From the NCBI GenBank assembly GCA_937889515.1, contig CALAOV010000136.1, positions 1,061 to 65,060 of the forward strand: DNA of 64,000 bases, in the 5' to 3' direction. Positions within the stretch are counted from its first letter, which is position 1, and every line of letters starts with the position of its first letter. The translations under genes and the position numbers were made by a program. Under the pieces are notes generated by a model. It did no database searches. It was not told the origin of the DNA and worked only from the letters and a program-made list of their open reading frames with translations. Of the stretch, positions 36,389-57,150 are shown one piece after another. The stretch is from an uncultured Myxococcales bacterium (lineage in GTDB: Bacteria > Myxococcota_A > Polyangia > Fen-1088).

Positions 36389-36649
36389 CGGCGACTTGGG
36401 ATAGATGCCTCTGCGCGATCCTGTGGCGCCGGGGCGCTTCTGTCCCGGGCGCAATATTATTCGGAACGGCGAGAATGGTTTTGTTCGGCTTGGCGACGAT
36501 GTTATGAGAAGTTCCGGTTGCCTCAAGACACTAAAGAACAATTACCCCTTTCCGCCTTTGAGACTTGAACCTTCCCACTCCGGTATTCGTCTTCGATTCG
36601 CGCGGCTGGCCCGGCAAGCCCGCCTCCGGGTCGCTCCTTGACGGTTCGT

Positions 36650-38194: not shown

Positions 38195-39750
38195 TGATGA
38201 TGAACCCGAACCGAAAGCACTCGACGATGCACACCGTCCTTTCGGCAACCCGGCGTTCGGGAATCATCTTCCTGGCCGTGCTCGCCGCCCCCGCGATGGC
38301 GTCGGCCGCCGTCGGCGGCGCGGACGACGGGGTTCCCAGGCTCGGCCTCGACCCCGGCGAGCCCCAGTCCCCCAGCCCGCCCCCGGCGGTCCCGTTCGGC
38401 GTCCACCCGGCCGAGTCGAAGGAGTACGTCCTCGATTTCCACGGGTACCTGCTGCTGCCCGCCTACCTTGGCCTGCACGAACGCGTGGACCCGCAGCCCG
38501 GACAGAGCAGCGAGGTCCTCCACTCGCCGCCGCTCGTTCCCCAGAACCTCCGGGACTTCCAGTACACGGGCGTCGTGCCGAGCCCCTGGCTGCAGCTCAA
38601 CTTCATCTACGGCAACTCGACGGTATCGGCCACGGTCATCGTGGCCGGCACCAGCGCCATAGACGCGGCGGGATACTACGACCCGGTCGCCCAGATGGGC
38701 GTGAACGACGCCTACCTGACGGTGAACGTCACCAAGTGGCTCGGCATCCCCCTCCAAGTAAACGTCGGCGCCCTGACGGGTCGATATGGCGCGATGGGCG
38801 GCTACGACGCCGGGCGCTACGGCACGCCGCTCATCGCCCGGACGAACACCGTCGGTGAGACGATCACGGGGAGCCTCAAGCTGGGCGGCGATCTCTTCCT
38901 CATGTTCGAGCAGGGGCTCGGTGGCCAGCTGGGGCGTCCCCCGATCGGCCTGGTGCCGGCGGGCTGGAACGACTTCGCGAACGCCAACGTGGGCGCGACC
39001 TTCGTCAACCACGCGCACGTCGGCCTCGCCTATGCGCAGCTCCTCCGTTTGGGCTTCCACTACCTGACCGCCTGGACGCAGGACGACCTCGCCGATGGTG
39101 GTGGAGGTCAGATACCCGACGGGCGGATCACGGTGCTGGGCGCCGACGTCAACCTGACCGCGGGACGCGCGGGTCATCTCTACTTCGGGGCGACCCACAC
39201 CTGGGCGACCAACGCGTCCACCGTGTCGGGTGCGATCGAGATCCTGAACGCGCGCGGCGGGCCGGAGCTGGTCGCGAATTACCTCGGTGCGCAGAGCAAC
39301 GGCAACGGCTCTCTGACCATCTTCGGCGGCCAGTACGATCTCAGCCTCGCGAGGCTGGTTTTCGGGCAATGGTACACGGGCAACAGCCCGGATGTCCTCA
39401 TCAGCTTGTTTGGCGTCGGGGCGAAGGTGAGCAGTCAGGACCCGGCACAAAACGGTGTGCTCAAGCTGAAGGGCGGCGTCGAGGCCACCTACACCTTCCA
39501 GTCCTGGATGGGTGTGTCGGAGCGGTTCGATCATGTTCGCGAAGACAACAGCGACTCGAAACAGGCCTTCACCAGTCTTTCGTCACGCCTCCTGTTCCAC
39601 ACCGGCTGGAGGAGCCGCAACGAGATCGCGCTCCAGTATGTCTACTTCGTCTACGGCAGCAGCGTGGAGGCCCTGACGGGGTATCCTCCGACCACGGAAG
39701 TGAACCCGGATCGTCAGGTCTTTTCCTTGACCGGGACCATCTGGTGGTAG
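38194..39750 (+). CDS. Secreted protein, candidate outer-membrane beta-barrel, paralog 2 (same length as paralog 1)
   Basis: It has a signal peptide. It shares the NHAHLG/NHAHVG block with paralog 1, and the C-terminal residue is Trp. The start overlaps the upstream stop (TAATG). Confidence 0.5.
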   Translation: MMMNPNRKHSTMHTVLSATRRSGIIFLAVLAAPAMASAAVGGADDGVPRLGLDPGEPQSPSPPPAVPFGVHPAESKEYVLDFHGYLLLPAYLGLHERVDPQPGQSSEVLHSPPLVPQNLRDFQYTGVVPSPWLQLNFIYGNSTVSATVIVAGTSAIDAAGYYDPVAQMGVNDAYLTVNVTKWLGIPLQVNVGALTGRYGAMGGYDAGRYGTPLIARTNTVGETITGSLKLGGDLFLMFEQGLGGQLGRPPIGLVPAGWNDFANANVGATFVNHAHVGLAYAQLLRLGFHYLTAWTQDDLADGGGGQIPDGRITVLGADVNLTAGRAGHLYFGATHTWATNASTVSGAIEILNARGGPELVANYLGAQSNGNGSLTIFGGQYDLSLARLVFGQWYTGNSPDVLISLFGVGAKVSSQDPAQNGVLKLKGGVEATYTFQSWMGVSERFDHVREDNSDSKQAFTSLSSRLLFHTGWRSRNEIALQYVYFVYGSSVEALTGYPPTTEVNPDRQVFSLTGTIWW

Positions 39751-39757
39751 GCGACAG

Positions 39758-40669
39758 ATGAGCTTCAGGCGGACATCGGAGGTGTTTCTCTTCGCTCTCG
39801 GGGGCGCGTTCGGATGCAACGCCTATCCGACGCTGAGGCCCGTCCCGGTCGACTGCACCGCCGACGCCGCGTACGACATCCAGTACATCTATACCTTCGA
39901 CACGGTTGCTTCGACCAACTTCTATGGCTCCGGCGACCACCTCGACGCCGACGTCTCTACGGCGCCGGTGATTCAACCCCTCACCGACGGTCCTCGCTGC
40001 GGCAGCACGAATGCGCTCCTGCTCCACACGGACCACAACGACGATTGGGGATCGCTGTTCGGGATCTACTCCTTCGGACCGAGGCCCGAATCCGCCTACC
40101 AGGGGCTGTCGTTCTGGGCGCGCTCTCCGGGCAACACCAGCAAGGCCTTCACGGTCTTGCTCGACGACACGAACACGGAGAACCTGGCGCAGCCCGCGAT
40201 GTGCAGCCTCGACGCCGGCACGCCCCCGAGCCCGGTAGATGGCGGCTCGGCCGTCTGCAAGAACTACTGTATGCCCGACGGGGGAACCGGCGGGGCGTCG
40301 TACGCCATCAATACGTTGACCGGCCAGCCCATCGGAGGCGTGACCACCAATGCGCCTCCGCCCGACGCGTGCGGAAACAGCTACTACGTCGTGGCACAGG
40401 TAACGTCCGGTTGGCAGTTTTACACCTTTCCGTTCACGGCGTTCCGACAGCTCGCGGAGCCGAATCGGGTGCCCAATGCCAATTTTCCCGACACGGAGTC
40501 GACGCCCGGAACCCACCTCCTGACCTCCGCTTTGATGGGCCTCACCTTCCGCATGCCGCCGGAGGCGGACATGAACCTCTGGCTCAGCCATCTGGGCTTC
40601 TACCGCCCCAAGGTGGGTGGGGGTGGCGATGGGGCCGTCGATGCGCCAAAGGATGTGACAGGGCAGTGA
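39758..40669 (+). CDS. Hypothetical lipoprotein
   Basis: The lipobox is LGGAFGC. It sits in the GH74 operon. Confidence 0.45.
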   Translation: MSFRRTSEVFLFALGGAFGCNAYPTLRPVPVDCTADAAYDIQYIYTFDTVASTNFYGSGDHLDADVSTAPVIQPLTDGPRCGSTNALLLHTDHNDDWGSLFGIYSFGPRPESAYQGLSFWARSPGNTSKAFTVLLDDTNTENLAQPAMCSLDAGTPPSPVDGGSAVCKNYCMPDGGTGGASYAINTLTGQPIGGVTTNAPPPDACGNSYYVVAQVTSGWQFYTFPFTAFRQLAEPNRVPNANFPDTESTPGTHLLTSALMGLTFRMPPEADMNLWLSHLGFYRPKVGGGGDGAVDAPKDVTGQ

Positions 40670-40742
40670 GCGCAATTTATACGCAAACGAATCGCGTTAC
40701 GCCTCGAGGGCGTCGAGGGTGACAGTGGGGCTGAACTAGAAA

Positions 40743-41666
40743 ATGAAGGGAGCAATTTTCATGAGCACGAATCTTCGAGTTGAAAATCTACTGGGAATTC
40801 TTTTCGTCGGCTGCGGGCTTCTCGCCTGCACGACTCAGGCGGCCCCAACCGGAACCGGCGGCAGCGGAGCCGGGACCAGCGGCAGCGGAACCGGCGGTGG
40901 TGGCGGCGGGACCACGGGCACCGCCGGCGCCGGCGGTGGTGCATACGCGGCGAGTGATGGCGTGCTGTGCCTCCCGCCCGCGGCGACCGGTCTCATAACC
41001 AACTTCACCTACGCGCCGGCGGACGGCGCCACCCCCGTGACGGATCAGGTGGCCTTCGGAGACAATACGACGACGTTGTCGGGCGGTGAGTTCGTCTATC
41101 CCAACGCGTCTTCGACCAGCGCGTACAAGCTCGTCTCCGACGTGACCGGCAGCAACTGGCATATCACCGCACCGGCCATGGTCGGCGACTACTCGGGGTT
41201 CGGGTTTTTCTTCCAGTCGGGCTCCGCCGGCTGCAACCATATCAATGCGACGGGCTTCAAGGGGATCTCGTTCACCATCTCCGGCACGGTGCAGGGTGGC
41301 TCGCTCACATTCGAGGTCGATACCTTGAACGACACCATCAAACCGGCATGGCTCACGGCCCACGCCGGCACTCCGGGAGCCACCGACCCCGGCGCTTGCG
41401 ATCCCGGTGGCACGGCCGCGACCACTCAGTACACGCAGACTGTTTGCGTGGAGCCCACCACGGCCATCACGGTCGGCTCGACTCCGACCACGGTGAACGT
41501 GTTGTGGAGCCAATTCACGAACGGCAAGACGGACCCGAGCCCGGTACCGACCGATATCGTCGGCATCCGTTGGGTGCTTCCTGTGCCGGCGCAAATCGGT
41601 ACGGCCACCGTCGTGACGTATCCGCTCGACATCACGGTCGACAACATCACGTTCATTCCCAATTGA
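40743..41666 (+). CDS. Hypothetical lipoprotein with Gly-rich linker, possibly carbohydrate-binding
   Basis: The lipobox is LFVGCGLLAC. A Gly/Thr/Ser linker is followed by a beta-sandwich-like domain. Confidence 0.45.
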   Translation: MKGAIFMSTNLRVENLLGILFVGCGLLACTTQAAPTGTGGSGAGTSGSGTGGGGGGTTGTAGAGGGAYAASDGVLCLPPAATGLITNFTYAPADGATPVTDQVAFGDNTTTLSGGEFVYPNASSTSAYKLVSDVTGSNWHITAPAMVGDYSGFGFFFQSGSAGCNHINATGFKGISFTISGTVQGGSLTFEVDTLNDTIKPAWLTAHAGTPGATDPGACDPGGTAATTQYTQTVCVEPTTAITVGSTPTTVNVLWSQFTNGKTDPSPVPTDIVGIRWVLPVPAQIGTATVVTYPLDITVDNITFIPN

Positions 41667-41671
41667 CGCCG

Positions 41672-42382
41672 ATGTCGCGTGGGTTGACCGCAACCGCATG
41701 GCTCGCCGTCCTCGCTCTGGGGACGGCGGGCTGTCTCTGCCCTTGCCCCAATGGGGTCATGGCGGCCGCGCCGGCGACCGCCGGGGGGGCGATTCCGGGC
41801 GCCGCCGCGATGCCCGCCGCCGGCGGCAGGCCGGTCGCGACGGGCGGCCGGCTCGTGATCTGGGACGGAGACGGAGCGGGAAACGGAGCACAGGGGTGGG
41901 ACGCTTGCGACCCGAAGGCCGGCTGCAGCAAGGTCGGGATCGATTCGGGTAGCGGCACCAGCGGCAGCACCAGCATCAAGATGCACGGCGACGGGCCGGG
42001 GTATCTCGGGATGGGCTGGAACCTGTTCGGGTGGTACCCGGAAAACGCCGGGGTCGACCTGGGGCCGTATACCCATCTGACGTTCCAGATCCGCGTTGAG
42101 GCGAAATCGCCCGCCGACGCGCCGGACCCTGGCTCCGTCGGCGTGTTGCTGGGATGCAGCCGGAACAAGAACGACAGCGCGACCGTCACCGTCGAAAGGT
42201 ACGCGAAGGGATTCACGGACGGGAAATGGCACAAGGTCGAGATCCCGATCGCGATGTTCACCAAGGGAGCGGGCTCCAAGTTCGACCTGCAGTCGTTCTG
42301 GGAGTTTAGGATTGCCACCTGGAGCGCCGCGGCCCGCCACTTCAACATCTACATCGACGACATCGCCGCCGAAAAGCAGTGA
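41672..42382 (+). CDS. Lipoprotein with CBM-like domain
   Basis: The lipobox is LGTAGC. The domain reads IWDGDGAGNGAQGWDAC...FWEFRIATW. Its stop overlaps the GH74 start. Confidence 0.45.
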   Translation: MSRGLTATAWLAVLALGTAGCLCPCPNGVMAAAPATAGGAIPGAAAMPAAGGRPVATGGRLVIWDGDGAGNGAQGWDACDPKAGCSKVGIDSGSGTSGSTSIKMHGDGPGYLGMGWNLFGWYPENAGVDLGPYTHLTFQIRVEAKSPADAPDPGSVGVLLGCSRNKNDSATVTVERYAKGFTDGKWHKVEIPIAMFTKGAGSKFDLQSFWEFRIATWSAAARHFNIYIDDIAAEKQ

Positions 42383-44733
42383 CAGTGGTGGGCCGCCACG
42401 GTCACCCGCGTCCTATCTTCTCCGCGGTCTGGGTGGCGGTCGCCGCGTGGCTGGGCATTTGCGTGGCGTGCGTCGATACCGGGCGCTCCGCTCCGGCGGA
42501 CGCCTCCGCCGGGCCGGGCCCCGTGCAGCCCGTCACCTGTGCGCCGGCACCGCCCGTCGCGTACTCCGGCAATGCCGTCATCCCCTCGGGCGATACGGCG
42601 ATGGCCGGCCCCTACGCGTGGAAGAACGCCGTCATCAAAGGTGGGGGCTTCGTCAGCGGCATCATCACGAGCCCAGCGCTCAAGGGACTCGTCTTCGCGC
42701 GGACGGACGTCGGAGGCGCCTACCGTTTCGACCCCGCCAACCAGCGCTGGACGCCGCTCACCGATTGGGTCGGGCATAGCACTCCGGGGCTCGTCGGGAT
42801 CGAGAGCATTGCGGTGGACCCGGTCGATCCCAACAAGGTCTATGTCGCGGCGGGGCAGTACCTCGGCTCCGGCAACGGCACGATCCTGAGCTCGACCGAC
42901 ATGGGACGCACCTGGAACCAGAACAACATTTCCGCGCCCATGGGCGGCAACGCGGACGGGCGCTCGATGGGTGAGCGGCTGGCGGTCGATCCCAACCTGC
43001 CCAGCACGTTGTACTTCGGCTCGCGCAACGCGGGCCTGTGGAAGAGCACGGACTCCGCGCAGACCTGGACGCAACTTGCGGGTTCCCCATCTGTCGACGG
43101 CGTAGGTGCCGGCAACAGCCCAGGGACGGGGTACGGGTTGACGTTCGTGGTGTTCGATCCGCAGAGCGGCTCGCCGGGAAGCGCTACCCCGGCGATCTAC
43201 GTCGGCGTCGGCACGACCACTGGGCCTAGCCTCTATCGTTCCACCGACGCCGGCGCGACCTGGGCCGCGGTCGTGGGGACGCCCGCCGGCATGATGCCGC
43301 ACCATGCGGTCCTGGATGGCTGCGGCGACCTCTACCTCACGTACAACAACGGCTCTGGTCCCAACAGCGTGACCGCCGGCGCCGTCTGGCGATACACGCC
43401 GCCGATCGGGCTCTGGACCAACGTGAGCCCTCCCGGCGGTGGCTTCGGTTTCGGCGGAATTTCAGCCGACGCCGCTCATCCGGGAACGCTGCTCGTCACG
43501 ACGATCGACGACTGGTCGCCCGGCGCGGTCTACCGGACCATCGACGGCGGCGCGAGCTGGACGCCACTTCCCGGCGCGTCGCACGGGAATGTGGCGGGCG
43601 CGCAATGGCTCTACTGGCACACCAGCAACCTGCCCGCGATGGGCTGGATGGGCGACATCGAAATCGACCCCTTCGATTCAAACCATGCCCTCTTCATCAC
43701 GGGCCAAGGCCTCTGGTCGAGCGACGACGTCACGACGGCCGACAGCGGCGGCGCGACCAGCTGGACCTTCGCCGACGACGGTCTCGAGGAGACGGTCGTG
43801 CTCGACCTCGCCAGCCCTCCGGCTATCGCTCCGGCCGTCGTCGCCCCCCTGCTGAGCGGGGTCGGCGACATCGGCGGGTTCCGGCACGACGACCTCACCG
43901 TCTCGCCCACGAGCGGCATGTCCGCCAATCCGATCTTTGGCAACACGAGCAGCCTCGACTTCGCCGAGAGCGCGCCGCTCGTCGTCGCGCGCGTGGGCAC
44001 GGCTTCGTCGTCCCCCAAGCAAACCGGCGCCTATTCCACGGACGGAGGCACGAGCTGGACGGCCTTCGCCAACCTTCCGACGGCAACCGGAAGCACCACG
44101 CCGAACTCGGGATCGATCGCGGTCGCGGCCGATGGCAGCACCTTCGTCTGGGTTCCGAAGAGCGGCACGCCCTCTTACACGACGGACAAAGGCACGACCT
44201 GGACGGCGTCGACGGGCCTCACGTCGGGCGCGCTGGTGGCCTCCGACCGGGTCAATCCTTCCAAGTTCTACGCGAGCGGCCGGGGCACGATGCTCGTGAA
44301 CACCGACGGCGGCCAGACGTTCAAGGCGACCACGGCCACCTCGTCCGGGCGGCCGCGCCCCGTGTTTGGCATCGAGGGGGACGTTTGGGCGTCCACAAGC
44401 AGCGGCCTGATGCGCTCGCAGGACTCGGGCGCGACCTGGCAGCCGGTGGCCGGGGCGACCGGCGCCAGCGCGGTGGGCTTCGGGATTCCGGCGACGCCAG
44501 GAGCCTACCCGGCCGTATTCCTGGCGGGCTCCGTGATGCTCCCCGGCTCCGCCACCGCTGTCTGGGGCATTTACCGCTCCGACGACGCCGCGATGAATTG
44601 GCAACGAATCGACGATCCGCAGCACCAGTTCGGGAGCATCGGCGTCCTGGCCGGCGACCGCAACCAGTACGGCCGGGTCTATCTCGGCACCGGCGGGCGG
44701 GGAATCGTCTATGGCGATCCGCAACCGCAATAG
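42379..44733 (+). CDS. GH74-family (xyloglucanase-type) BNR/Asp-box twin-propeller lipoprotein
   Basis: The N-terminal block WKNAVIKGGGFVSGIITSP...VFARTDVGGAYRFD is GH74-like. There are multiple SxDxGxTW repeats. It is 784 aa. Confidence 0.75.
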   Translation: MTVVGRHGHPRPIFSAVWVAVAAWLGICVACVDTGRSAPADASAGPGPVQPVTCAPAPPVAYSGNAVIPSGDTAMAGPYAWKNAVIKGGGFVSGIITSPALKGLVFARTDVGGAYRFDPANQRWTPLTDWVGHSTPGLVGIESIAVDPVDPNKVYVAAGQYLGSGNGTILSSTDMGRTWNQNNISAPMGGNADGRSMGERLAVDPNLPSTLYFGSRNAGLWKSTDSAQTWTQLAGSPSVDGVGAGNSPGTGYGLTFVVFDPQSGSPGSATPAIYVGVGTTTGPSLYRSTDAGATWAAVVGTPAGMMPHHAVLDGCGDLYLTYNNGSGPNSVTAGAVWRYTPPIGLWTNVSPPGGGFGFGGISADAAHPGTLLVTTIDDWSPGAVYRTIDGGASWTPLPGASHGNVAGAQWLYWHTSNLPAMGWMGDIEIDPFDSNHALFITGQGLWSSDDVTTADSGGATSWTFADDGLEETVVLDLASPPAIAPAVVAPLLSGVGDIGGFRHDDLTVSPTSGMSANPIFGNTSSLDFAESAPLVVARVGTASSSPKQTGAYSTDGGTSWTAFANLPTATGSTTPNSGSIAVAADGSTFVWVPKSGTPSYTTDKGTTWTASTGLTSGALVASDRVNPSKFYASGRGTMLVNTDGGQTFKATTATSSGRPRPVFGIEGDVWASTSSGLMRSQDSGATWQPVAGATGASAVGFGIPATPGAYPAVFLAGSVMLPGSATAVWGIYRSDDAAMNWQRIDDPQHQFGSIGVLAGDRNQYGRVYLGTGGRGIVYGDPQPQ

Positions 44734-44754: not shown

Positions 44755-47073
44755 ATGACGATGACGAGAAGACTTTCCTGGACGGTGTCGTTGGCAGCGA
44801 TCGCGACGGCGTTGGCTCAACCCGGCTGCAAGGTGTGCGAGTGCACCGCCGCCGCGGCGACGCCGGTCAGCGCCGCGACGGCGGCAGCGTCCGCGCAGGC
44901 GCCGGGCGCATCCGCGGCGACGCCCGCCGGCGGCGGCCTGACCGGCAAGGTGGCCTACAACTGGAAGAACGTCGCCATCCTCGGCGGGGGATTCGTCAGC
45001 GGTATCGTCTTCAGTCCCGTCGAGAAGGATCTGGTCTATGCCCGCACCGACGTGGGCGGCGCGTATCGGTTCAACGCGGCCGACAAGACCTGGATCCCGC
45101 TGACCGACCAGCTCGGGCGCGATTCGAACTTCTTCGGCATCGAAAGCCTCGCGGCCGATCCGGTCGACGCCAACAAGGTGTACCTGGCCGGGGGCACCTA
45201 CACCGGGTCCTGGGTCGGCAACGGCGCCATCCTCCGCTCGAACGATCGCGGCGACACCTGGCAGACCATCGACATGCCCGTCAAGATGGGCGGCAACGAG
45301 AACGGCCGCTCGATGGGCGAACGGCTCGCCATCGACCCCAACCTGCCCAGCATTCTCTACTTCGGGTCACGTAAAGCCGGCCTCTGGAAGAGCGCGGACT
45401 CGGGGTCGACCTGGGCGAAGGTCGACAGCTTCTCGGCCTCCGACAACGACAAGGGAATCGGCATCCCGCTGGTCCTGTTCGACAAGCGCAGCGGCACCAA
45501 TGGCAAGGCCACGCCGACCCTCTACACCGCCGTCGCCAACAACGCGGGCAGCCTCTACCGCAGCACCGACGCCGGCGCGACCTGGAAGCTGGTGCCCAAG
45601 CAGCCGACGGACCTGATGGTCAGCCACGCGCAGTTCGACTCCGCCGGCGCGCTGTACCTCAGCTACCAAAATGGGCCCGGCCCCAACGACGTGACGGACG
45701 GCGCGGTCTGGAAGTACGATCCCAAGGCCGAGAAGTTCACGGACATCACGCCTTCCGCCCCAAAGGGCGACGACAAGTTCGGCTACGGCGGGCTGTCGCT
45801 CGACGCCGCGCACCCGGGCACGATCATGGTCAGCACCATCGACCGGTGGACCAAGGGGGACGAGATTTACCGGACGACCGACGCCGGCAAAAAATGGAAA
45901 GCGCTCTTGCCCAAAGTCGTCCGTGACGACGCCGGCGCGAAGTATCTCTACTGGCACAAGTCAGAGCCGATCGGTCGGGGCTGGATGGGCGACATCGACA
46001 TCGATCCGTTCAACCCGGGGCGCGCGATGTACGTGACCGGGGCGGGGATCTGGGCCACCGAGGACGCGACCGCCGCGGATTCGGACAAGCCCACCCACTG
46101 GACCTTCCTGGACCGCGGGCTCGAGGAAACGGTCATCAAAGACCTGGTGAGCCCCCCGGCGGGACCGCCGCTGCTGAGCGCGATGGGCGATCTCTGCGGC
46201 TTCCGGCACGACGACCTCGGCGTGCCCTCGAAAGACGGGATGTTCGACAATCCGCTCTGCGGCTCGGCCAGCGGAATCGACGTCGCCTGGAGCAAACCGG
46301 AGATCGTCGCGCGCGTCGGCTGGGCCGACAAGCAGCGATGGGGAGCCACCTCCGCCGACGGCGGCAAGACCTGGACGCCTTTCAAATCCGTGCCCAAGGG
46401 CAAGGGCGCCGGCTCGATCGCGATGTCGGCGGACGGCACGGCCCTCGTGTGGGCGCCCCTGGAAGGGCCGGTCGTCTTTTCAAAGGACCAGGGCGCGACC
46501 TGGGCCCGCGCCGAGGGGCTCCCGGACGCGGAGCCATCTCCGGACTGGGCGCCGGTACCCTTCAGGCCGGCCGCCGACCGAGTGAACGGCAAGAAGTTTT
46601 ACGTGCTCGACGCCAAGGGCGGGCAGGCGTTCACCAGCGTGGACGGCGGGGCCCACTTCACCGCTTCGCCGACCGGGCTGCCCGCGCTGGCCGACTACCA
46701 GTTCGGCTCTTCCTCGGCGCAGGCCACCCCCGGGATCGAGGGCGACGTGTGGCTCACCAACTTCAAAGAGCTCAACCACTCGACCGATTCGGGCAAGACC
46801 TACGAGGCGATCTCGGGCGTGAGCGAGGCCTATGCCTTCGGCTTCGGCAAGGCGGCCGACGGCAAGAAATATCCGGCGCTGTATCTCATCGGCAAGATCG
46901 GCGACGTGGTGGGCTTCTTCCGCTCCGACGACGTCGGCGCCACCTGGGTGAGGGTCAACGACGACCAGCACCAGTACGGCTTCTGCGGCGTCATCATCGG
47001 CGACCCCCGGGTGTACGGCCGCGTCTACGTGGGAACCGGCGGCCGCGGGATCGTGTACGGCGAGCCGAAGTAG
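44755..47073 (+). CDS. GH74-family (xyloglucanase-type) BNR twin-propeller lipoprotein, paralog
   Basis: The N-terminal block is WKNVAILGGGFVSGIVFSPVEKDLVYARTDVGGAYRFN. The blocks are collinear with the upstream paralog. Confidence 0.75.
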   Translation: MTMTRRLSWTVSLAAIATALAQPGCKVCECTAAAATPVSAATAAASAQAPGASAATPAGGGLTGKVAYNWKNVAILGGGFVSGIVFSPVEKDLVYARTDVGGAYRFNAADKTWIPLTDQLGRDSNFFGIESLAADPVDANKVYLAGGTYTGSWVGNGAILRSNDRGDTWQTIDMPVKMGGNENGRSMGERLAIDPNLPSILYFGSRKAGLWKSADSGSTWAKVDSFSASDNDKGIGIPLVLFDKRSGTNGKATPTLYTAVANNAGSLYRSTDAGATWKLVPKQPTDLMVSHAQFDSAGALYLSYQNGPGPNDVTDGAVWKYDPKAEKFTDITPSAPKGDDKFGYGGLSLDAAHPGTIMVSTIDRWTKGDEIYRTTDAGKKWKALLPKVVRDDAGAKYLYWHKSEPIGRGWMGDIDIDPFNPGRAMYVTGAGIWATEDATAADSDKPTHWTFLDRGLEETVIKDLVSPPAGPPLLSAMGDLCGFRHDDLGVPSKDGMFDNPLCGSASGIDVAWSKPEIVARVGWADKQRWGATSADGGKTWTPFKSVPKGKGAGSIAMSADGTALVWAPLEGPVVFSKDQGATWARAEGLPDAEPSPDWAPVPFRPAADRVNGKKFYVLDAKGGQAFTSVDGGAHFTASPTGLPALADYQFGSSSAQATPGIEGDVWLTNFKELNHSTDSGKTYEAISGVSEAYAFGFGKAADGKKYPALYLIGKIGDVVGFFRSDDVGATWVRVNDDQHQYGFCGVIIGDPRVYGRVYVGTGGRGIVYGEPK

Positions 47074-49497: not shown

Positions 49498-52400
49498 CTA
49501 GCGTCGCCGCGCCGCAGACGGACGCCGGCGCCGCGTCGCGAGCAGCAGGCCCAATGCCAGGAGGATCGTCACCGCGAGCGTGCCGGTCGCGCTGCCGAAG
49601 CCGGAGGTCAGCTCGCACCCGCAGCCACCGCCGCCGGGCGTGGGGGGCATGCCCGCCAGCGCCACCGGAATGCTGATCGAGGCGGTGTTGCCGAGCGAAT
49701 CGGTGACGCGGATGACGTCGGTGCCGGCGTGGGACCCCGCCGTGTAGGCGCCGGTGCCGGCGACGACGGTGCCGCCGGAGCCGGAGCTGACGACGGTCCA
49801 GACGAACCCGGTGCCGCTGCCGCCGCTGGCCGCGAGCGCGATGTTCTGGCCCGTCTTGACGGTCCCCGCGACCGGCGCGATGGTGACGCCGGGGCCGACC
49901 TGGACGGTGATGGTCACGGTGGCGCCGTTGGCGTCGGTCACGGTGATGACGTCGGTGGTGTTGCCGGCGGAGCCGGCGGTGTAGACGCCGGTGGCCGCGT
50001 TGATGCTGCCGCCCGAGCCGTTGGTGGTGAGCGCGTACATGAGGGGCGCCGCGCCGCCCGAGACCGCGATGGCCAGCGAGCCGCCCGGCGGAGAGGTGGT
50101 GGTCGCGACCGTGGCCGACAGCGCGGCGGCGACGTGGACCTGGGCGGTTGCCGTATTTCCGAGCGAATCGGTGACGGTCACGACGTCGGTCCCGCCGCCC
50201 AGCGCACCGACGCTGTAAGCGCCGGTATTGGGAGCGATGGTTCCGTGCGAAGCGTTGGCGGTCAGCGCGAAGGTGTAGCCGGCCCCGCTGCCGCCGCTGA
50301 CCGTGAAGGTCATCTGCGCGAGCGGCGCGGCGTCCACCACGGCCGGCATCAGGTGAAGGCCATCGCCCACGGTGATGGTGGCATGCGCCGAGTTGTGAAG
50401 CGTGTCGGTCACGGTCACGACGTCCTGAACGTTTCCCGCCGAGCCGGCGGTGTAGCTTCCCGTCGACGCGCCGATGGTCGCGCCGGACGCGTTGGTGGTG
50501 AGGACGAAGGTAAAGCCGGTCCCACTGCCGCCCGCCGCCGTGAAGACCACCTGACCGCGCGGGGCCACCGTCGGCGCCGCCGGGTTCATCGTCAGGGCGC
50601 CACCGACCGCGATGGACGCGCTCGCGGTGTTGCCGAGCGAGTCGGTCGCCAATACCCCGTCGACCACGTCGGTGATGCTGCCGGCCGTGTACAGGCCGGT
50701 CGTGGCGTCGAGCGTGCCGCCCGAAGCGTTGGCGGTGAAGGTGTAGCGGTAGCCCGTGCCACTGCCTCCGACCGCCACCAGCGTGAGCGTGCCGCCGGGC
50801 GGCGCGGCCAGGGCGGCCGGGGTGATGGAGACCCCGGGACCGACGTGGATCGTCAGCGTGGCGGTGTTGCCGAAGGGGTCGGTTGCCTCGATCACGTCGG
50901 CGGAGCTCCCGGTGTCGCCCGCGGTGTAGACGCCGGTGGTGGCCACGATGTTGCCGCCCGAGCCGTTGGTGTGCAGGGTGAAGGTGTAGCCGCCGCCCAC
51001 GCCGCCCACCGCCAGGAAGGTGGCCGCGCCGCGCGGCGGGACCAAGCTGGTGGAGGCCGTCAGCGTGATACCCGGGCCGACCGTGACCGTGACCGTATCG
51101 GTATTGCCGAGCGAGTCGGTCACCGTCACGACGTCGGTCGTGCTGCCGGTCGGTCCGGCGGTGTAAAGGCCGCTGGCATTCACCCCACCCGTCGAGGCGT
51201 TGGTGGTCAGCGCGAACCGATACCCGGTCCCGCTGCCACCGGCGGAGGTGAGCTGGATGGTGCCGAGCGGTGCGGTGCTCGCCGAGGGTGGCAGCACGGT
51301 CAATCCCGGTCCGATGGCGACGGAGACGGTCGCGGTCGCGCCGAGCGAGTCGGTGACCGACAGGACGTCGGTGACGTTCGGAACCAGGCCGGCGGTGTAG
51401 ACGCCGCTCGCGGGATCGACGCTGCCGCCCGATTGGTTGTCGGCGAAGGAATAGACATAGCCGGTGCCGCTGCCGGCGAACGCCACCAGGGTGAGCTTTT
51501 CGCGGGGGGCGACGGTCGCGCCGGCCGGGCCGAGAACCAGGTGCCCGCCCACGGCGATGGACACCGACGCGCTGTTGCCGAGCGAGTCGGTCACCGTTAC
51601 GAGATCGACGACGCCGCCCTTGGCGCCCGCGGCGTAGGCACCGCTGGCGGGATTGATGCTACCGCCCGACTGGTTGTCCGCGAGGACGAAGACGTAGCCG
51701 GTGCCGCTGCCGTCGGTGGCGCCGAACGCGATGGCACCGAGCGGCGCCGTCGCGGGCTGTGCGGGGCTGATGGCGACGCCGCGGCCGACGTTGACGACCA
51801 CGTTGGTCACCGCGCCGTTGTGATCCGCAATCAGGATCACGTCGGTGCTGTCGGGGTTGGACCCCGCGGTGTAGGCGCCCGTGGCGGGATCGATGCTGCC
51901 GCCCGAGCCGTTGCCGGAGATGGAAAAGACGTAGGCCGGGGCTCCGCCGCTAACCGCGATAGTCAGGCTGGCCCGCGGCGCCGCGGACAGCGTACCGGCC
52001 GCGGCGACCAGGGCCGCCGTGACGGTGATGGTGGCGGTGGCGGTGTTGCCCAGCGCATCCAGCACGGTGACCACGTCGACCACGTTGCCGATCCCGCCGG
52101 CGGCGTAGACGCCGGTCAGCGGGTCGATGCTACCGCCCGAAAGATTGGACGACAGCGCGAAGTTATATCCGGAACCGGTGCCGCCCGAGACCGCCAGGGT
52201 CTGCTGACCGAGGGGGGCGAGCGTGACGGCAGCCGGGGTGACCGCGAGCCCCGGACCGACCGTGATGGTGACGGTGCTGTGATTGCCCAGAGGGTCGACC
52301 ACCGACAGCACGTCGGTGGCGGAGCCGATCGCGCCCGCGGTGTACGCGCCGGTCGCGGCGTCGACCGTGCCGCCGGAGGGGTGGCTGGTGAGCGTGAAGA

Positions 52401-55400
52401 CATAGCCCGCGCCGCTGCCACCCGTGGCGGTGAAGGCCTGCGAACCACGGGGTGGCGTGGTCAGAGACGACGGGGACACCGCGACTCCCCCGCCCACCGA
52501 GATGTTGACGGTCCCGGAGTTGCCGAGCGAGTCGGTCACGGTCACCAGATCGGTGCTACTGGCAATGCTGCCCGCCACGTACACGCCGGTGAGGAGGCCG
52601 ATCGTTCCGCCCGAAGCGTTGCCGAGGATCGCGAAGGTGTAGCCGGTGCCGCTGCCGCCGCTGGCGGACAGGGTGATGGTCCCGCGCGGCGCGATGGACG
52701 GCGCCGGAGGGGCCACGGTGACACCTACACCGACGGTGACATTGGCGGCGGCGACGTTACCTAGCCCGTCGGTGACCGTGACCACGTCGGTAACGCCGGG
52801 GGCGGCGCCGGCGACGTACACGCCGCTGACGGAGTTGATCGTTCCGCCCGACGCGTTGGCGCCGATAGCGAAGACGAAGCCCGCCCCGCTGCCGCCCGAG
52901 GCGCTGAAGGTCAGTGTCCCGCGCGGCGGCGTCTGCGTGGCGTTGGCCGTCAGGGCGACGCCCGCGCCCACGACGATGCTGGCCGTCGCCGAATTGCCGA
53001 CCGAATCGGTGACGGTGATGATGTCGGTGACGCTGTCGTTCTGGCCCGCGACATAGTGCCCGCCCGCGTCGATGGTGCCGCCCGAGCGGTTGGTCGAGAT
53101 CGCGAAGATGAGACCGATGCCGCTTCCACCCGCGGTGGTGAACGTCGCCGAGCCGCGCGGCGCGACCTGGGTCGGGGCCGACGACAGGCTGAGCGCGGCG
53201 CCCACGGTGATGTTGGCGTGGGCCGTGTGGGCCTGGTTGTCGGTGACGGTGATGACGTCGGTGACCTGGGGGGTGGCGCCCGCGGTGTAGACGCCCGTCG
53301 TCGGATCGATCGATCCGCCCGAAGGCGCGCTCTGCATCGTGAAGACGTAGCCGGCGGTGCTGCCGCCCGCCGCCGTGAAGGTGACCGATCCGCGCGGCGC
53401 GACCGCGGCGCTGGCCGGGCTCAGCGTGATGGGCGCCTGGTTGGTCAGCGCGAAGGCGGCCTTGAGCGCGACGCCGACGGCGGACGCGGTGACCGTGTAG
53501 TTGCCGGCGGTGGCGTTGGCGGTGGCGGTGACGCTGGCGACGCCCGAGGCGTTGGTGGTGGCGGTGGCGCCACCGAGCGCGGCCGAGGCGCCCGAGGTCG
53601 GGGCCAGGAACGTGACCGTGGCGCCATTGACCGGGTTGCCGTTGCCGTCGACGACGCGCGCGGCGAGCGGCGCGGCAAACGCCGCGCCGACGAGCGCGAT
53701 CTGGCCGTTGCCGCTGCTGACCGCGATCGATCCGGGCGCGCCCGCCACGTTGGTGAGCATCGCGGCGACGCTGGCGCCGGCCGGGATCGACGCCGAGACG
53801 GCGTAGCTGCCGGCGATGGTGTTGGCGGTGGCGGCGGTCTGGGCCAGGCCGCTGGCGTCGGTGACGGCCATCGGGCTGCCCAAGGTGGCGGAGGCGCTGC
53901 CCGCCGCCGGCGCGCCGAAGGTCACGGTCGCGCCCACGATCGGGTTCAACGACGCGTCCGTCACGCGCACCACGATGGGCGCGCCGAAGACGGCTCCGAC
54001 GGTCGCGCTCTGGGGGCTGCCGCTCACCAGCGTGACCAGCGAAGCGGCGCCCGCCAGGTTGGTGAGCGCGAAGGCGGCGGGCGTGGCGACGCTGGGCGCG
54101 GTCGCGCTCACGCTGTAGGAACCGGCGACGGTGTTGGCGGTGGCGGTGACGCTGGCCTGACCGGAGGCGTTCGTCGTCACCGTCGTCGCGGAGACTCCCG
54201 CCGAAGCGCCGCTCGTCGGGGGCGCGAAGGTGACGACGACGTTCGGCAGCGGAAAGCCCGTGCCGTCCTTGACCACTGCGGTCAACGTGGCGAAGGTGCC
54301 CAGCAGAGCCGCGCTCTGACCGCTGCCGCTGACGACGGTGATCGAGCTCGGCGCGCCGAGGTTGCGCAGGCTGAAGCTGGTCGACGCGGACGTCCCGCTC
54401 ACGGTAGCGGTGACGGCATACGCGCCGGCGGTGGCATTGGCGGTCGCGGTCAGGGAGGCGATGCCCGAGGCGTTGGTGGTGGCCGATGCGGCCAGCGTCG
54501 CCGAGGCGCCCGAGCCGGGAGCGGCGAAGAGGACCGTCGCACCCGACAGGGGGGTGCCACCGGCGTTGGTGACCAGCACCGCCAGGCCCGATCCGAACAT
54601 GGCGCCGGTGAGCGCCGTCTGATTGTTGCCCGCCGACACCACGATGAGCGGCGCGGAGAAGGTCGCCGAGATGGTGTGGCTCGCGGTCACGTTGCTGAAC
54701 GTGAAGGTCGCCACCGCGCCCACCGAGACCCCGTCGACCAGAACGCTGGCGATCGCAAAGCTCGTGCTGGGTGTGATGGTGAAGGCCTGCGACTGTCCCT
54801 GGATGACGGTGCTGACGCCGGCCGGTGCGATAGCGCCGTTGGCGCCCGCCGACGCGGTGATGGTGAAGGTGGGGACCAGCGAGACGGTCAGGTTCTTGGT
54901 CCCGGAGAGCTGCAGGACGGGATCGCCGGCCATGCCGCCGTACTCGACCACCGACCCGAGCGTGCTGGTGGCCGGCAGGTCGTTCCACAGGCCCCCGACG
55001 TAAAATTGCGCCCAGTTCTCGGCGCCGCCCGAATTGTTGGGCTCACCCGGATTCCAGTTGGCGTAGGCGCCCCCGAAGGCGGATCCGTTCGACAAGCCCG
55101 TCCAGAACTGGGTTCCGGCACCGGCGTTCGCGAGCCCCTCGGGTCCGGTCACCCAGCGCCAGGTTCCCTCCACCGCCGCGTCGCTGGCCCCGATCCATCC
55201 CGTCGCGGCGAGCTTTCCGTTGATGAAGGTATCCTCTCCCGCGCTGGTCACCGTGGCGAGGTAACCCTGCAGGCCGTAGTACGTGCGCGCCGCCGCGACC
55301 GGCTTGGCCGCGGTCCAGCTCAGGTTGCTGTTGACGAACTCGTAGTAATGGCCGGTCCCCGGATAGAAGAGGCTGCTGGCGCCGATCGAGAAAGTGACCT

Positions 55401-55833
55401 GACGGGCCTGGGTGTTGGGGGCGGCGCCCGCCGTGTTGTTGTAGGTGACCGAACGGAGCACGGTCTGGTAGATGGTGACCGCCGCCTGGCCGGAGAGCGT
55501 CAGGATGCCGGTCGCGGCCACGAACGAGCCCGTCACCCCGCCCTGCGCCGTGAAGCTCAGGTTGTCCTGTCCGTTCACGTACCCGGTCGAGATCGACACC
55601 TGCACGCCGGTGATTTCGGAGGCGTCGGAGATGGTCAGCGACAGGGTCGGATCCACCACCACGGGGGCGGATTGCGCGACATAGATCGTCGCGCCCGCCG
55701 ACACCGTCAGAACCGGCGCCGTACCCGTGACGACGGCGCTCTTCACCTGGATGACGCCGTCGCCCGAGCCGTCACCCGCGCGCCCGCAGGCCGCCAGTGA
55801 CACGGCCAGGAGCAGAGCGACGCCCCACCCCAT
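49498..55833 (-). CDS. Giant (2112 aa) cell-surface protein: lipoprotein signal, C-type-lectin-like domain, Big-type Ig repeats, about 18 novel ~75-aa repeats, MYXO-CTERM tail
   Basis: The start is MGWGVALLLAVSLAACG. The CTLD motifs are WIGASDAAVEGTWRWV, WNPGEPNN and WNDLP. The Big_1-like repeats read ATANATAGAYAVTATVSG. The tandem unit is APRGSxTFTAxGGSGxGYxFxLxxNxSGGxIDxxTGVYTAGxxxxxTDVVTVTDSLGNTATATITVGPG. The C-terminus GCGCELTSGFG...LLLATRRRR is a MYXO-CTERM-like tail. Confidence 0.8.
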   Translation of the reverse strand: MGWGVALLLAVSLAACGRAGDGSGDGVIQVKSAVVTGTAPVLTVSAGATIYVAQSAPVVVDPTLSLTISDASEITGVQVSISTGYVNGQDNLSFTAQGGVTGSFVAATGILTLSGQAAVTIYQTVLRSVTYNNTAGAAPNTQARQVTFSIGASSLFYPGTGHYYEFVNSNLSWTAAKPVAAARTYYGLQGYLATVTSAGEDTFINGKLAATGWIGASDAAVEGTWRWVTGPEGLANAGAGTQFWTGLSNGSAFGGAYANWNPGEPNNSGGAENWAQFYVGGLWNDLPATSTLGSVVEYGGMAGDPVLQLSGTKNLTVSLVPTFTITASAGANGAIAPAGVSTVIQGQSQAFTITPSTSFAIASVLVDGVSVGAVATFTFSNVTASHTISATFSAPLIVVSAGNNQTALTGAMFGSGLAVLVTNAGGTPLSGATVLFAAPGSGASATLAASATTNASGIASLTATANATAGAYAVTATVSGTSASTSFSLRNLGAPSSITVVSGSGQSAALLGTFATLTAVVKDGTGFPLPNVVVTFAPPTSGASAGVSATTVTTNASGQASVTATANTVAGSYSVSATAPSVATPAAFALTNLAGAASLVTLVSGSPQSATVGAVFGAPIVVRVTDASLNPIVGATVTFGAPAAGSASATLGSPMAVTDASGLAQTAATANTIAGSYAVSASIPAGASVAAMLTNVAGAPGSIAVSSGNGQIALVGAAFAAPLAARVVDGNGNPVNGATVTFLAPTSGASAALGGATATTNASGVASVTATANATAGNYTVTASAVGVALKAAFALTNQAPITLSPASAAVAPRGSVTFTAAGGSTAGYVFTMQSAPSGGSIDPTTGVYTAGATPQVTDVITVTDNQAHTAHANITVGAALSLSSAPTQVAPRGSATFTTAGGSGIGLIFAISTNRSGGTIDAGGHYVAGQNDSVTDIITVTDSVGNSATASIVVGAGVALTANATQTPPRGTLTFSASGGSGAGFVFAIGANASGGTINSVSGVYVAGAAPGVTDVVTVTDGLGNVAAANVTVGVGVTVAPPAPSIAPRGTITLSASGGSGTGYTFAILGNASGGTIGLLTGVYVAGSIASSTDLVTVTDSLGNSGTVNISVGGGVAVSPSSLTTPPRGSQAFTATGGSGAGYVFTLTSHPSGGTVDAATGAYTAGAIGSATDVLSVVDPLGNHSTVTITVGPGLAVTPAAVTLAPLGQQTLAVSGGTGSGYNFALSSNLSGGSIDPLTGVYAAGGIGNVVDVVTVLDALGNTATATITVTAALVAAAGTLSAAPRASLTIAVSGGAPAYVFSISGNGSGGSIDPATGAYTAGSNPDSTDVILIADHNGAVTNVVVNVGRGVAISPAQPATAPLGAIAFGATDGSGTGYVFVLADNQSGGSINPASGAYAAGAKGGVVDLVTVTDSLGNSASVSIAVGGHLVLGPAGATVAPREKLTLVAFAGSGTGYVYSFADNQSGGSVDPASGVYTAGLVPNVTDVLSVTDSLGATATVSVAIGPGLTVLPPSASTAPLGTIQLTSAGGSGTGYRFALTTNASTGGVNASGLYTAGPTGSTTDVVTVTDSLGNTDTVTVTVGPGITLTASTSLVPPRGAATFLAVGGVGGGYTFTLHTNGSGGNIVATTGVYTAGDTGSSADVIEATDPFGNTATLTIHVGPGVSITPAALAAPPGGTLTLVAVGGSGTGYRYTFTANASGGTLDATTGLYTAGSITDVVDGVLATDSLGNTASASIAVGGALTMNPAAPTVAPRGQVVFTAAGGSGTGFTFVLTTNASGATIGASTGSYTAGSAGNVQDVVTVTDTLHNSAHATITVGDGLHLMPAVVDAAPLAQMTFTVSGGSGAGYTFALTANASHGTIAPNTGAYSVGALGGGTDVVTVTDSLGNTATAQVHVAAALSATVATTTSPPGGSLAIAVSGGAAPLMYALTTNGSGGSINAATGVYTAGSAGNTTDVITVTDANGATVTITVQVGPGVTIAPVAGTVKTGQNIALAASGGSGTGFVWTVVSSGSGGTVVAGTGAYTAGSHAGTDVIRVTDSLGNTASISIPVALAGMPPTPGGGGCGCELTSGFGSATGTLAVTILLALGLLLATRRRRPSAARRR
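49700..54600. repeat. Long array of imperfect ~225-bp in-frame tandem repeats inside the giant surface-protein gene
   Basis: Recurrent GTGACGGTCACGACGTCGGT-like blocks and periodic codon structure are visible. The repeats make the antisense frames stop-free. Confidence 0.7.
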
Positions 55834-56038
55834 CGCGCGGCCGGGGCGGGCGCGTGCCGCGATCGATTCTCGGTGGCGGTCGAGTCGAGCGCCCGAGTGG
55901 GTAAGAAGTGAACCTACACGAACAAGGCGGAACTCGGCGTCGGGTTGATGCACGAGTATGAAGTAAGGCCGGAAACAATTTCGATCTTGAACCCAGCTGC
56001 TACCGGTTTGAATTGGTCTGCTATTTGTCGTTGATCGT

Positions 56039-56917
56039 TCATTGCCGCGCCCGCAGGAAGGCGCCGGGGGTGACGAAGTAGCGCCGTTTGAAAAGACGCG
56101 ACAGGTGCGCCTGATCGGCAAACCCCGAGCACGAGGCCGCATCGGCGATGGATCCCCCGTCGGCGAGAAACTCGTGGGCGTGCTCGAGGCGGCGGCGCAT
56201 CACGAACGCATGCGGCGTTTCGCCGGTCGTTCGCTTGAACTCGCGGGAAAAATGCGCGGGCGAGAGCCCACTTCCGCGCGCCAGGAACTTGACGGTGATC
56301 CGCTCGGCCAGGCGTTCGTCCACCAGGGCGCAGGTGACCGCCAGGCGTTGCCCGGTAAATGCATCTGCCGGTGCGGCAATCAGATCGAACAACCCACCCA
56401 GTCGGGCCACCAGCGCCAGCACCAGGGCGTCGCGGTAGGATCGACCCGACGCCCCGCCGGTCGCCGCTTCGTGCAGGAGCGCCAGCACGACCGCGGCGAG
56501 CGGCTCGTCGCGCAGGCCGTGCATCGGCACCACGCGGAGGTCGGTGCCGAGCACGCGCCGGATCTTGTCGAGAGAGACCTCGACCGCACCCCACGCCGAT
56601 GCTCCGCTCCGAAGGTTGAACGCGGCGCCGGCGGGCAAGATCACGAAGCATCCCGTCCCAATGGTCACCGGGTGGAACCCGTCGATGTCTTTGGTCTCCA
56701 TGACCAAGGGATCCTGGAGATTGAGCCCCAGCCAGTGTCCGGCGATCGCGCCGTGCTCGCCTTTGAAATGGCTGCTCACCCCCCGCTCGACCACCACCCC
56801 GTCCCAGCCCAAGGCGCGGCTCGAAGCCCCGACCACCGGATCCAGGAAGACCACCGGGCGCGGGCGATCGGTCCGAAACTCGAAGAAGTCCAACGCCAAC
56901 TCTGGTCCCCCGTCCAT
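56039..56917 (-). CDS. AraC-family transcriptional regulator (cupin N-terminal domain)
   Basis: The C-terminal region has an HTH_AraC-like fold (LARGSGLSPAHFSREFKRTTGETPHAF...IADAASCSGFADQAHLSRLFKRRY). Confidence 0.7.
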   Translation of the reverse strand: MDGGPELALDFFEFRTDRPRPVVFLDPVVGASSRALGWDGVVVERGVSSHFKGEHGAIAGHWLGLNLQDPLVMETKDIDGFHPVTIGTGCFVILPAGAAFNLRSGASAWGAVEVSLDKIRRVLGTDLRVVPMHGLRDEPLAAVVLALLHEAATGGASGRSYRDALVLALVARLGGLFDLIAAPADAFTGQRLAVTCALVDERLAERITVKFLARGSGLSPAHFSREFKRTTGETPHAFVMRRRLEHAHEFLADGGSIADAASCSGFADQAHLSRLFKRRYFVTPGAFLRARQ

Positions 56918-57150
56918 TCCATGACTCCCCGCCCCCCAGCTTGGTGTCGCGCCGCCGCGTGACCAATCACGCAACGATCGACGTTACGTACACGCAGACT
57001 GGTTATAGCCGAACGCCATCCAGCGGCCACCTATGTTTGGTGCCCTTCCTTCGGCGCCCTTCTTTGGTGCCTTCGAGAACGTTGGATATACTCGCTCGAG
57101 CTTGGGTTGAAAGGCCGCAAATTGGTGCGCCCCTACGTCGGAGCCCCCTG

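Follow-up and report, generated by a model that had tools for sequence, protein, structure and literature searches.

In the giant adhesins MpIBP, LapA and SiiE, arrays of immunoglobulin (Ig)-like extender domains serve as a spacer that projects ligand-binding domains off the cell; these adhesins are type I secretion substrates with N-terminal plugs or other means of retention, and their repeats are near-identical. Invasin and intimin are likewise chains of Big_1-type Ig-like domains with a C-type-lectin-like tip, a domain that is without the EPN/WND calcium site. In animal collectins, the EPN/E/WND site binds calcium together with sugars that carry equatorial 3- and 4-hydroxyl groups (mannose, glucose, N-acetylglucosamine (GlcNAc) and fucose). 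TraA of Myxococcus xanthus has a signal peptide followed by a lectin-like head, a stalk of repeats and a two-cysteine MYXO-CTERM tag (PMC3325183, PMC11980579); MrtX cleaves this tag in a cysteine-dependent manner, and surface display of MYXO-CTERM proteins through MrtX and a type II secretion system (T2SS) has been demonstrated for TraA (PMC11980579). Here we describe a large gene of the same logic in a 64,000-nucleotide (64-kb) stretch of DNA, hereafter the window, from an uncultured Myxococcales bacterium of the Polyangia (positions 1,061–65,060 of contig CALAOV010000136.1, which is about 67 kb long). Its product combines a C-type lectin-like domain (CTLD) near the N terminus, a long series of Ig-like domains and a MYXO-CTERM tail, and we interpret it, with a probability of roughly 0.6, as a cell-surface lectin adhesin that takes the myxosortase and T2SS route and whose repeats form a stalk. 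The sequence features in this interpretation come from tool results, whereas processing, topology and ligand are inferred from the precedent of TraA and the biochemistry of the collectins.

The likeness to TraA includes a distal head with a calcium/sugar site, but the parts themselves differ. The head of TraA is a PA14 domain and that of the window protein a CTLD behind an extra β-module; the TraA stalk is built of cysteine-rich TIGR04201 repeats and that of the window protein of cysteine-free Ig-like domains; and the signal peptide of TraA is of type I, whereas that of the window protein carries a lipobox. No sequence homology was found between the two proteins beyond the tail. Compared with invasin and intimin, in which a β-barrel anchor is N-terminal and the lectin-like tip C-terminal, the polarity of the window protein is reversed, and it has neither a β-barrel nor a LysM domain. 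Unlike MpIBP, LapA and SiiE, it would be sorted by its MYXO-CTERM tail and the T2SS, and its repeats are diverged, with each unit individually conserved. The carbohydrate-recognition domains of animal collectins and C-type lectins (mannose-binding protein, collectin-11, langerin and SP-D) were the comparators for this bacterial protein; in contrast to them, the window CTLD is cysteine-free and so without canonical disulfides, is fused behind a bacterial β-module, and is accompanied by no collagen or coiled-coil neck for trimerisation.

Domain architecture and the lectin head

The gene and its parts, all on the minus strand, are as follows (aa, amino acids).

49498–55833, minus strand: whole gene for a MYXO-CTERM-tagged lectin/Ig-repeat protein of putative lipoprotein type (open reading frame and translation; stop codon at 49498–49500)
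55786–55833, minus strand: putative signal peptide with lipobox L-A-A-C, aa 1–16, Cys16 (read from sequence)
55363–55716, minus strand: β-rich N-terminal module, aa ~40–157 (AlphaFold2 (AF2) predicted local distance difference test (pLDDT) score mostly 84–95)
54940–55350, minus strand: cysteine-free C-type lectin-like domain, aa ~162–298 (E264-P265-N266, E272, W283-N284-D285)
54655–54906, minus strand: single β-sandwich module, InlB B-repeat or 'bacterial repeat domain'-like, aa ~310–393 (AF2 pLDDT 90–96)
53428–54648, minus strand: four tandem Big_1 (invasin/intimin-type) Ig-like domains, aa 396–802 (Pfam)
49648–53427, minus strand: sixteen tandem 78–79-aa Ig-like repeats, aa 803–2062 (motif anchoring)
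49522–49632, minus strand: MYXO-CTERM sorting signal, aa 2068–2104, with GGGGCGC (Cys2071, Cys2073), GTLAVTILLALGLLLAT and RRRR

The open reading frame at 49498–56142 (minus strand) is the longest in the region, and translation from the ATG at 55833 yields 2111 residues and a stop, with a product that starts MGWGVALLLAVSLAAC. Because an identical 2111-aa protein (P0151) is recorded on soil-metagenome contigs, the third-position GC content (GC3) is 0.90 and six full-length orthologues of 2099–2116 aa share 77–88% identity with the window protein, the gene is real and conserved. Its closest named records are from a metagenome-assembled genome (MAG) of a 'Polyangia bacterium' (88% identity) and from a MAG labelled 'Proteobacteria bacterium' (82%), which assigns the window to the class Polyangia of the Myxococcota. 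Cysteine occurs just three times in the whole protein, as C16 of the lipobox and as C2071 and C2073 of the tail's GCGC, and this pattern is repeated in the six close orthologues (P0151–P0157 set). When the gene and the gap preceding it were scanned for promoters and terminators, no promoter-like site and no meaningful terminator appeared, and searches of the window for Rfam families and tRNAs yielded nothing. The protein is built of known kinds of parts, being at once a MYXO-CTERM surface protein, a bacterial CTLD protein and an Ig-repeat adhesin; the sole new item is the 16-copy repeat, which has no database model.

The original prediction had named a lectin domain from three signatures, and all three are present: WIGASDAAVEGTWRWV at aa 213–228, WNPGEPNN at 260–267 and WNDLP at 283–287. 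Pfam Lectin_C (PF00059; cut-off 22.6 bits) matched the whole protein with 23.3 bits and the head alone with 27.1 bits, and matches to this family are precomputed for several orthologues. The domain has the CTLD fold. A phmmer search with the head retrieved mannose-binding protein C (MBP-C) at E 2.9e-9, and YANWNPGEPNNSGGAENWAQFYVGGLWNDLP, which holds the EPN, E272 and WND residues, aligned to the corresponding MBP-C stretch. The EPN/E/WND calcium-sugar site is complete, with every calcium- and sugar-site residue of mannose-binding protein retained, and the cysteine positions of MBP-C are occupied by W and A. Among 18 homologues, E272, W283, N284 and D285 are invariant, and the EPN triplet is kept in all except P0211, which has QPD. 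By analogy with the collectin site, the domain probably binds mannose-, glucose-, GlcNAc- or fucose-type glycans. A search of the literature found no paper linking C-type lectin domains to MYXO-CTERM proteins, and the window protein offers a clear bacterial example of a CTLD with a full collectin-type calcium/sugar site and no disulfides at all, on a protein that would follow the myxosortase route.

The β-module that precedes the CTLD gave no Pfam match at E≤1; its motif TG.LTLSG...YQ..LRSVTYNN is invariant in the 18 homologues, and the module accompanies the CTLD always, both in the homologues and in the genome loci. The cassette of β-module and CTLD was found at no fewer than 588 loci in species-representative genomes, at 33–53% identity and attached to other C-terminal regions. 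Its hosts are mostly Flavobacteriaceae, other Bacteroidia and cyanobacteria (Nostoc, Lyngbya and Scytonema), and also include Pirellulaceae, Anaerolineae and Myxococcota; by eye, some of the C termini in other phyla appear to be of the type IX secretion system (T9SS) kind. As the cassette crosses phyla with differing anchors, one biochemical characterisation would annotate hundreds of proteins.

With its lectin-like head, stalk of repeats and MYXO-CTERM tail, the window protein has the architecture of TraA (PMC3325183), and it could on this ground be taken for a kin-recognition receptor that binds its own kind on sister cells and leads to outer-membrane exchange. We regard this as very improbable, given that TraA is described as polymorphic whereas the window head is 72–91% identical among orthologues with an invariant sugar site, that its head is a CTLD and not a PA14 domain, that no traB-like partner gene lies adjacent to the lectin gene, and that the head cassette also occurs in non-social phyla.

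Sorting signals and the route to the surface

The published criteria for a MYXO-CTERM signal are a position near the C terminus, a GCGC signature, a helix without charge or proline, an Arg cluster and a source in the Myxococcia or Polyangia (10.1101/2023.06.07.544157). The reading of the end of the protein (GCGCELTSGFG...LLLATRRRR) as such a signal in the original prediction agrees with all of them: the GCGC is followed by the uncharged, proline-free helix GTLAVTILLALGLLLAT and then by RRRR, which lies seven residues before the protein end, and the closest named relative is from the Polyangia. The possibility that the C terminus would prove unlike the TIGR03901 model, raised with that prediction, is not favoured by these features. 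TIGR03901.2 (cut-off 20 bits) gave the isolated 55-residue tail 24.0 bits but the protein as a whole 17.8; in ten homologues, seven tails scored at least 20 bits, two scored 16–19 and one had no match. The model is short and lineage-sensitive according to its author (10.1101/2023.06.07.544157), and the tail is conserved in the orthologues.

On this basis, the adhesin would be exported via Sec and first be retained in the inner membrane by its MYXO-CTERM tail. By analogy with TraA, a tail cysteine would be lipidated and a myxosortase of the MrtX, MrtC or MrtP type would cut off the helix and the Arg cluster; the T2SS may then deliver the protein onto the cell surface, with its C terminus as the point of lasting attachment. 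The 21 Ig-like domains in series (16 Big_2-like repeats, four Big_1 domains and one β-module) would act as a passive spacer that keeps the N-terminal head of β-module and CTLD distant from the cell, and the position of the array next to the tail is the membrane-proximal one expected of a stalk. An Ig-like domain measures about 4 nm, and the extended stalk is thus estimated to be on the order of 70–90 nm long. The head would probably bind glycans on prey or neighbouring cells, exopolysaccharide (EPS), or plant or fungal polymers, and the adjacent AraC-type regulator would probably govern expression. None of this changes current concepts, and we consider the importance of these findings to be modest.

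Several observations weigh against this interpretation. No myxosortase or T2SS gene was found by Pfam annotation of the 10-kb flanks of the lectin gene, and no match to the CPBP family (Rce1-like proteases) occurs in these flanks. The whole-protein TIGR03901 score is below the cut-off (17.8 against 20), and the canonical disulfides of a CTLD are missing. In P0159 and P0164–P0166, the same head and 16 repeats end in an OmpA-type C terminus in place of the MYXO-CTERM tail, and P0015 has the same exchange behind the same 16 repeats; TSP_3 and OmpA domains are on record for four of these five proteins, and the anchor is thus swapped within one homologue family. The lipobox cysteine, finally, lies about 25 residues before the head and is conserved, and its acylation, if it occurs, would tie the head end to a membrane as well, unlike the head of a simple 'lollipop'.

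The lipobox cysteine and the OmpA-ended homologues together complicate a model in which the head points outwards, and they motivate the alternative of a doubly lipid-anchored or envelope-internal structural protein, acylated at Cys16 and at a C-terminal cysteine, which would run in a long loop along the outer membrane or lie inside the envelope and whose lectin domain would bind the cell's own EPS, lipopolysaccharide (LPS) or peptidoglycan-linked sugars. The L-A-A-C at aa 13–16 follows a hydrophobic stretch and fits the pattern [LVI][ASTVI][GAS]C (a pattern check only); no basic residue is present in the N-terminal region of the putative lipoprotein signal of the window copy. All of the homologues listed, the most distant at 51% identity, have a lipobox-like cysteine at this position, and the fact that C16, C2071 and C2073 are the only cysteines, in the window protein as in the six close orthologues, suggests lipid modification at both ends of the protein. 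Several other repeat-bearing proteins also pair a lipobox-like N terminus with a MYXO-CTERM-like tail. The usual ligand of an OmpA-type domain is periplasmic peptidoglycan, and the presence of such a domain behind the same array likewise favours a place inside the envelope.

We nevertheless judge this double-anchor arrangement to be unlikely. With about 21 Ig-like domains, the stalk is estimated to exceed the width of the periplasm by far, the head cassette is carried in other phyla by proteins with evident surface-protein C termini that read as T9SS-type, and the lipoprotein status is a sequence pattern only. Moreover, those MYXO-CTERM proteins that have been studied to date reach the cell surface, and are displayed there, by way of the T2SS (PMC11980579). 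The co-occurrence of a lipobox cysteine with the MYXO-CTERM cysteines raises the question of whether MYXO-CTERM proteins can be lipid-anchored at both ends.

The sixteen-unit array and its repeat family

The stalk begins with the single module at aa 310–393, which shares 50–69% identity in BLASTP with modules of Geomonas, Ferruginibacter and Bacteroidales proteins. It gave no Pfam match when scanned alone; PF18998 is among the families in the precomputed Pfam lists of the matching Geomonas and Bacteroidales proteins, and some of the source proteins are named 'bacterial repeat domain' or 'InlB B-repeat'. The Big_1-like modules of the original prediction follow as four stretches over aa 396–802 (Big_1, PF02369, 127.6 bits), a region in which matches to Invasin_D3 and CarboxypepD_reg overlap. 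The array then runs from aa 803 to 2062, and its units have the consensus ..P....aPRG..TFtA.GGSG.GY.F.L..N.SGG.I...TG.YTAG.....TDVVTVTDSLGNTAT..I.VG.G. when they are delimited by anchoring on the motif G.Y.[AV]G. Anchored in this way, the array comprises 16 units with a period of 78–79 aa, and not the roughly 18 copies of about 75 aa given in the original prediction.

The units had also been described as near-identical, and their DNA as similar enough to promote changes of copy number by recombination. The first description does not hold, and the second is not supported. Pairwise identity between units averages 46% in protein (range 29–58%) and 60% in DNA (range 47–67%), and the longest exact DNA word common to two units is 23 nt (median 12). 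Tandem Repeats Finder reported only short low-complexity repeats in the lectin gene, with no array of 234–237-nt or other long period, which counts against near-identical DNA repeats. The full-length homologues, whose identity ranges from 88% to 51%, have exactly 16 units without exception, including those with a different C-terminal anchor. When each unit was compared with those of a homologue, the positional counterpart was the best match for all 16 units where overall identity was 77% or 66%, and for 12 of the 16 where it was 55–59%. Because the count is 16 in all of these homologues and orthology runs position by position, the array is old, of fixed length and free of concerted evolution, and the fixed number and positional pairing suggest that the length of the stalk is under constraint.

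These results bear directly on the view that the protein is a variable adhesin whose unit number shifts by homologous recombination among the DNA repeats. The gene does contain a 3.8-kb tandem array of homologous units, and family members with 8 to 77 units indicate that copy number has shifted over deep evolutionary time. However, with units this diverged, an array that Tandem Repeats Finder does not see, a constant 16 units down to 51% identity, and 16/16 positional pairing that leaves no sign of concerted evolution, we find such a variable adhesin hardly credible.

The repeat had further been called unrecognised, which is true of the databases and not of the fold. The whole protein gave no Pfam or NCBIfam match over the array, and neither did five window units searched individually against Pfam, Big_2 (PF02368) included, or two searched against NCBIfam. 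When 52 diverse units of the family were searched individually against Pfam, only sub-threshold matches were obtained (best E 0.004), distributed as follows.

Big_9: 10 units
SprB: 8 units
K319L-like_PKD: 6 units
PKD: 3 units
Big_2: 1 unit

The lone Big_2 match had an E of 0.87, and the PKD-type models (PF00801 and PF22352) reached at best 0.005–0.006, below their cut-offs. A profile of the 16 window units found nothing significant among the sequences of the Protein Data Bank (PDB), and the broader profile of 52 diverse units was needed for the marginal matches to solved structures listed here.

KIAA0319L PKD domain: E 3.4e-5
Phage decoration-protein Ig domain: E 1.2e-4
Intimin: E 6e-4
BglH Big_2: E 9e-3

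The KIAA0319L match indicates distant homology only. An AF2 model of a repeat pair (pLDDT 94) shows an ordinary Ig-like β-sandwich closest to Big_2, and among structures it matches those of tandem Ig, cadherin and intimin arrays; the 79-aa repeat is thus predicted to have the Big_2-type Ig-like fold, with a score below the gathering threshold of the Big_2 hidden Markov model. The repeat is a divergent member of the bacterial Ig-like (Big_2/PKD) superfamily and not a new fold. It shares with Big_2 and PKD domains the terminal strand pair ...TVTDs.Gn.at..vtV; it differs from them in its own signature of GGSG.GY.F, N.SGG and TG.YTAG and in its strong tie to MYXO-CTERM tails.

A search of 1.84 billion cluster representatives with the 16-unit profile retrieved 3075 proteins, of which 545 had E<1e-30. 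How far the repeat extends taxonomically was judged from MYXO-CTERM-like tails, which a regular expression detected in 73 of the best 150 repeat-bearing proteins. In 59 of these 73 other proteins, fewer than about 80 residues separate the array from the C terminus, so that the repeat is typically the tail-proximal stalk of MYXO-CTERM proteins with varied N-terminal heads. With more than 3000 protein clusters, up to 77 copies in one protein and no annotation in large Myxococcota surface proteins, the repeat warrants a domain model.

A more specific role for this family was also considered, in which the repeat would be a distinct, unmodelled Ig-like family with a dedicated function in the MYXO-CTERM system of the Myxococcota, and not a passive spacer. 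It might then be needed, for example, for passage through the T2SS or for handling by the myxosortase. The window protein would in addition be anchored by lipid at both ends, and this topology, whether an extended loop on the surface or a link from one membrane or cell to another, would be undescribed for bacterial adhesins. We consider this doubtful.

The largest relatives are giant proteins (P0001, P0002 and P0007), with 77–78 copies in a protein of 7277 aa, 57 in one of 5426 aa and 53 in one of 4423 aa, and their unit periods differ, ranging from 76 to 85 aa. Full-length matches from Geomonas, Bacteroidales and Kofleriaceae were rejected as carriers of the repeat, as no 79-aa units are present in them. 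The Geomonas and Bacteroidales proteins, like that of Ferruginibacter, match the window protein through the B-repeat-like module; for the remaining non-carriers, the precomputed Pfam lists suggest an alignment through Big_1 domains.

Genomic neighbourhood and a possible link to foraging

The neighbouring genes that bear on the function of the lectin protein are the following.

56039–56974, minus strand: AraC-family regulator, directly upstream of the lectin gene on the same strand, with a 205-bp gap
42379–44733 and 44755–47073, plus strand: two GH74-like BNR/Sortilin proteins (GH, glycoside hydrolase family)
5493–8363, plus strand: GH31 protein with a PA14 domain
3926–5377, minus strand: GH29 α-L-fucosidase with an F5/8 type C domain
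2237–3913, minus strand: GH35/42-like enzyme with DUF5597

The upstream AraC regulator that had been predicted was confirmed by its two helix-turn-helix domains (HTH_18, 73 bits; HTH_AraC, 58 bits). In the metagenome record the gene is called at 292 aa, which would correspond to 56039–56917. A 292-aa AraC gene also stands before the 82%-identical orthologue, whose neighbourhood is otherwise different, and is absent beside the 66%-identical homologue. Control of the lectin gene by the AraC protein is plausible.

Taken together, the glycoside hydrolases of the window look like a kit for the degradation of fucogalacto-xyloglucan, which gives local support to the polysaccharide foraging that had been proposed for the lectin. 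The protein could accordingly be a substrate-capture lectin for foraging on plant hemicellulose, binding xyloglucan, fucosylated or glucan polymers alongside the hydrolases of the contig. The two GH74-like, GH31-PA14, GH29-F5/8C and GH35/42-like proteins of the window speak for this, as does a GH6 gene about 6 kb from the 66%-identical homologue, and EPN-type CTLDs accept fucose and glucose. However, the lectin and GH74-like genes converge, with four unrelated small genes between them, and the other hydrolases lie 41–53 kb away. Within 6 kb on either side of the homologues with 82% and 66% identity no GH74-like gene is present, a span too short to cover the GH29, GH31 and GH35/42-like genes, and the AraC gene is the only neighbour kept there, beside the 82% orthologue alone. 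Because GH74-like genes are missing from these two homologue contexts, the link of the lectin gene to foraging is speculative, and we regard a role in hemicellulose capture as quite improbable.

Two other regions of the window deserve mention. Five plus-strand genes in an operon-like row (36638–42382) lie upstream of the GH74-like pair and encode two 518-aa proteins (36638–38194 and 38194–39750) and three proteins of ~230–310 aa with lipoprotein-like N termini; none of the five has a Pfam match, and the GH74 enzymes may have uncharacterised partners in them. At 20023–24107, two overlapping minus-strand genes form an island of low GC content (0.56–0.57, against 0.65–0.72 around it). One encodes a 975-aa AAA_16 ATPase with many TPR repeats, and the other a 386-aa protein with no Pfam match and a P-loop-like GKTH motif, as read from its sequence. 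PADLOC returned no convincing defence-system match for this island, which may have been acquired horizontally.

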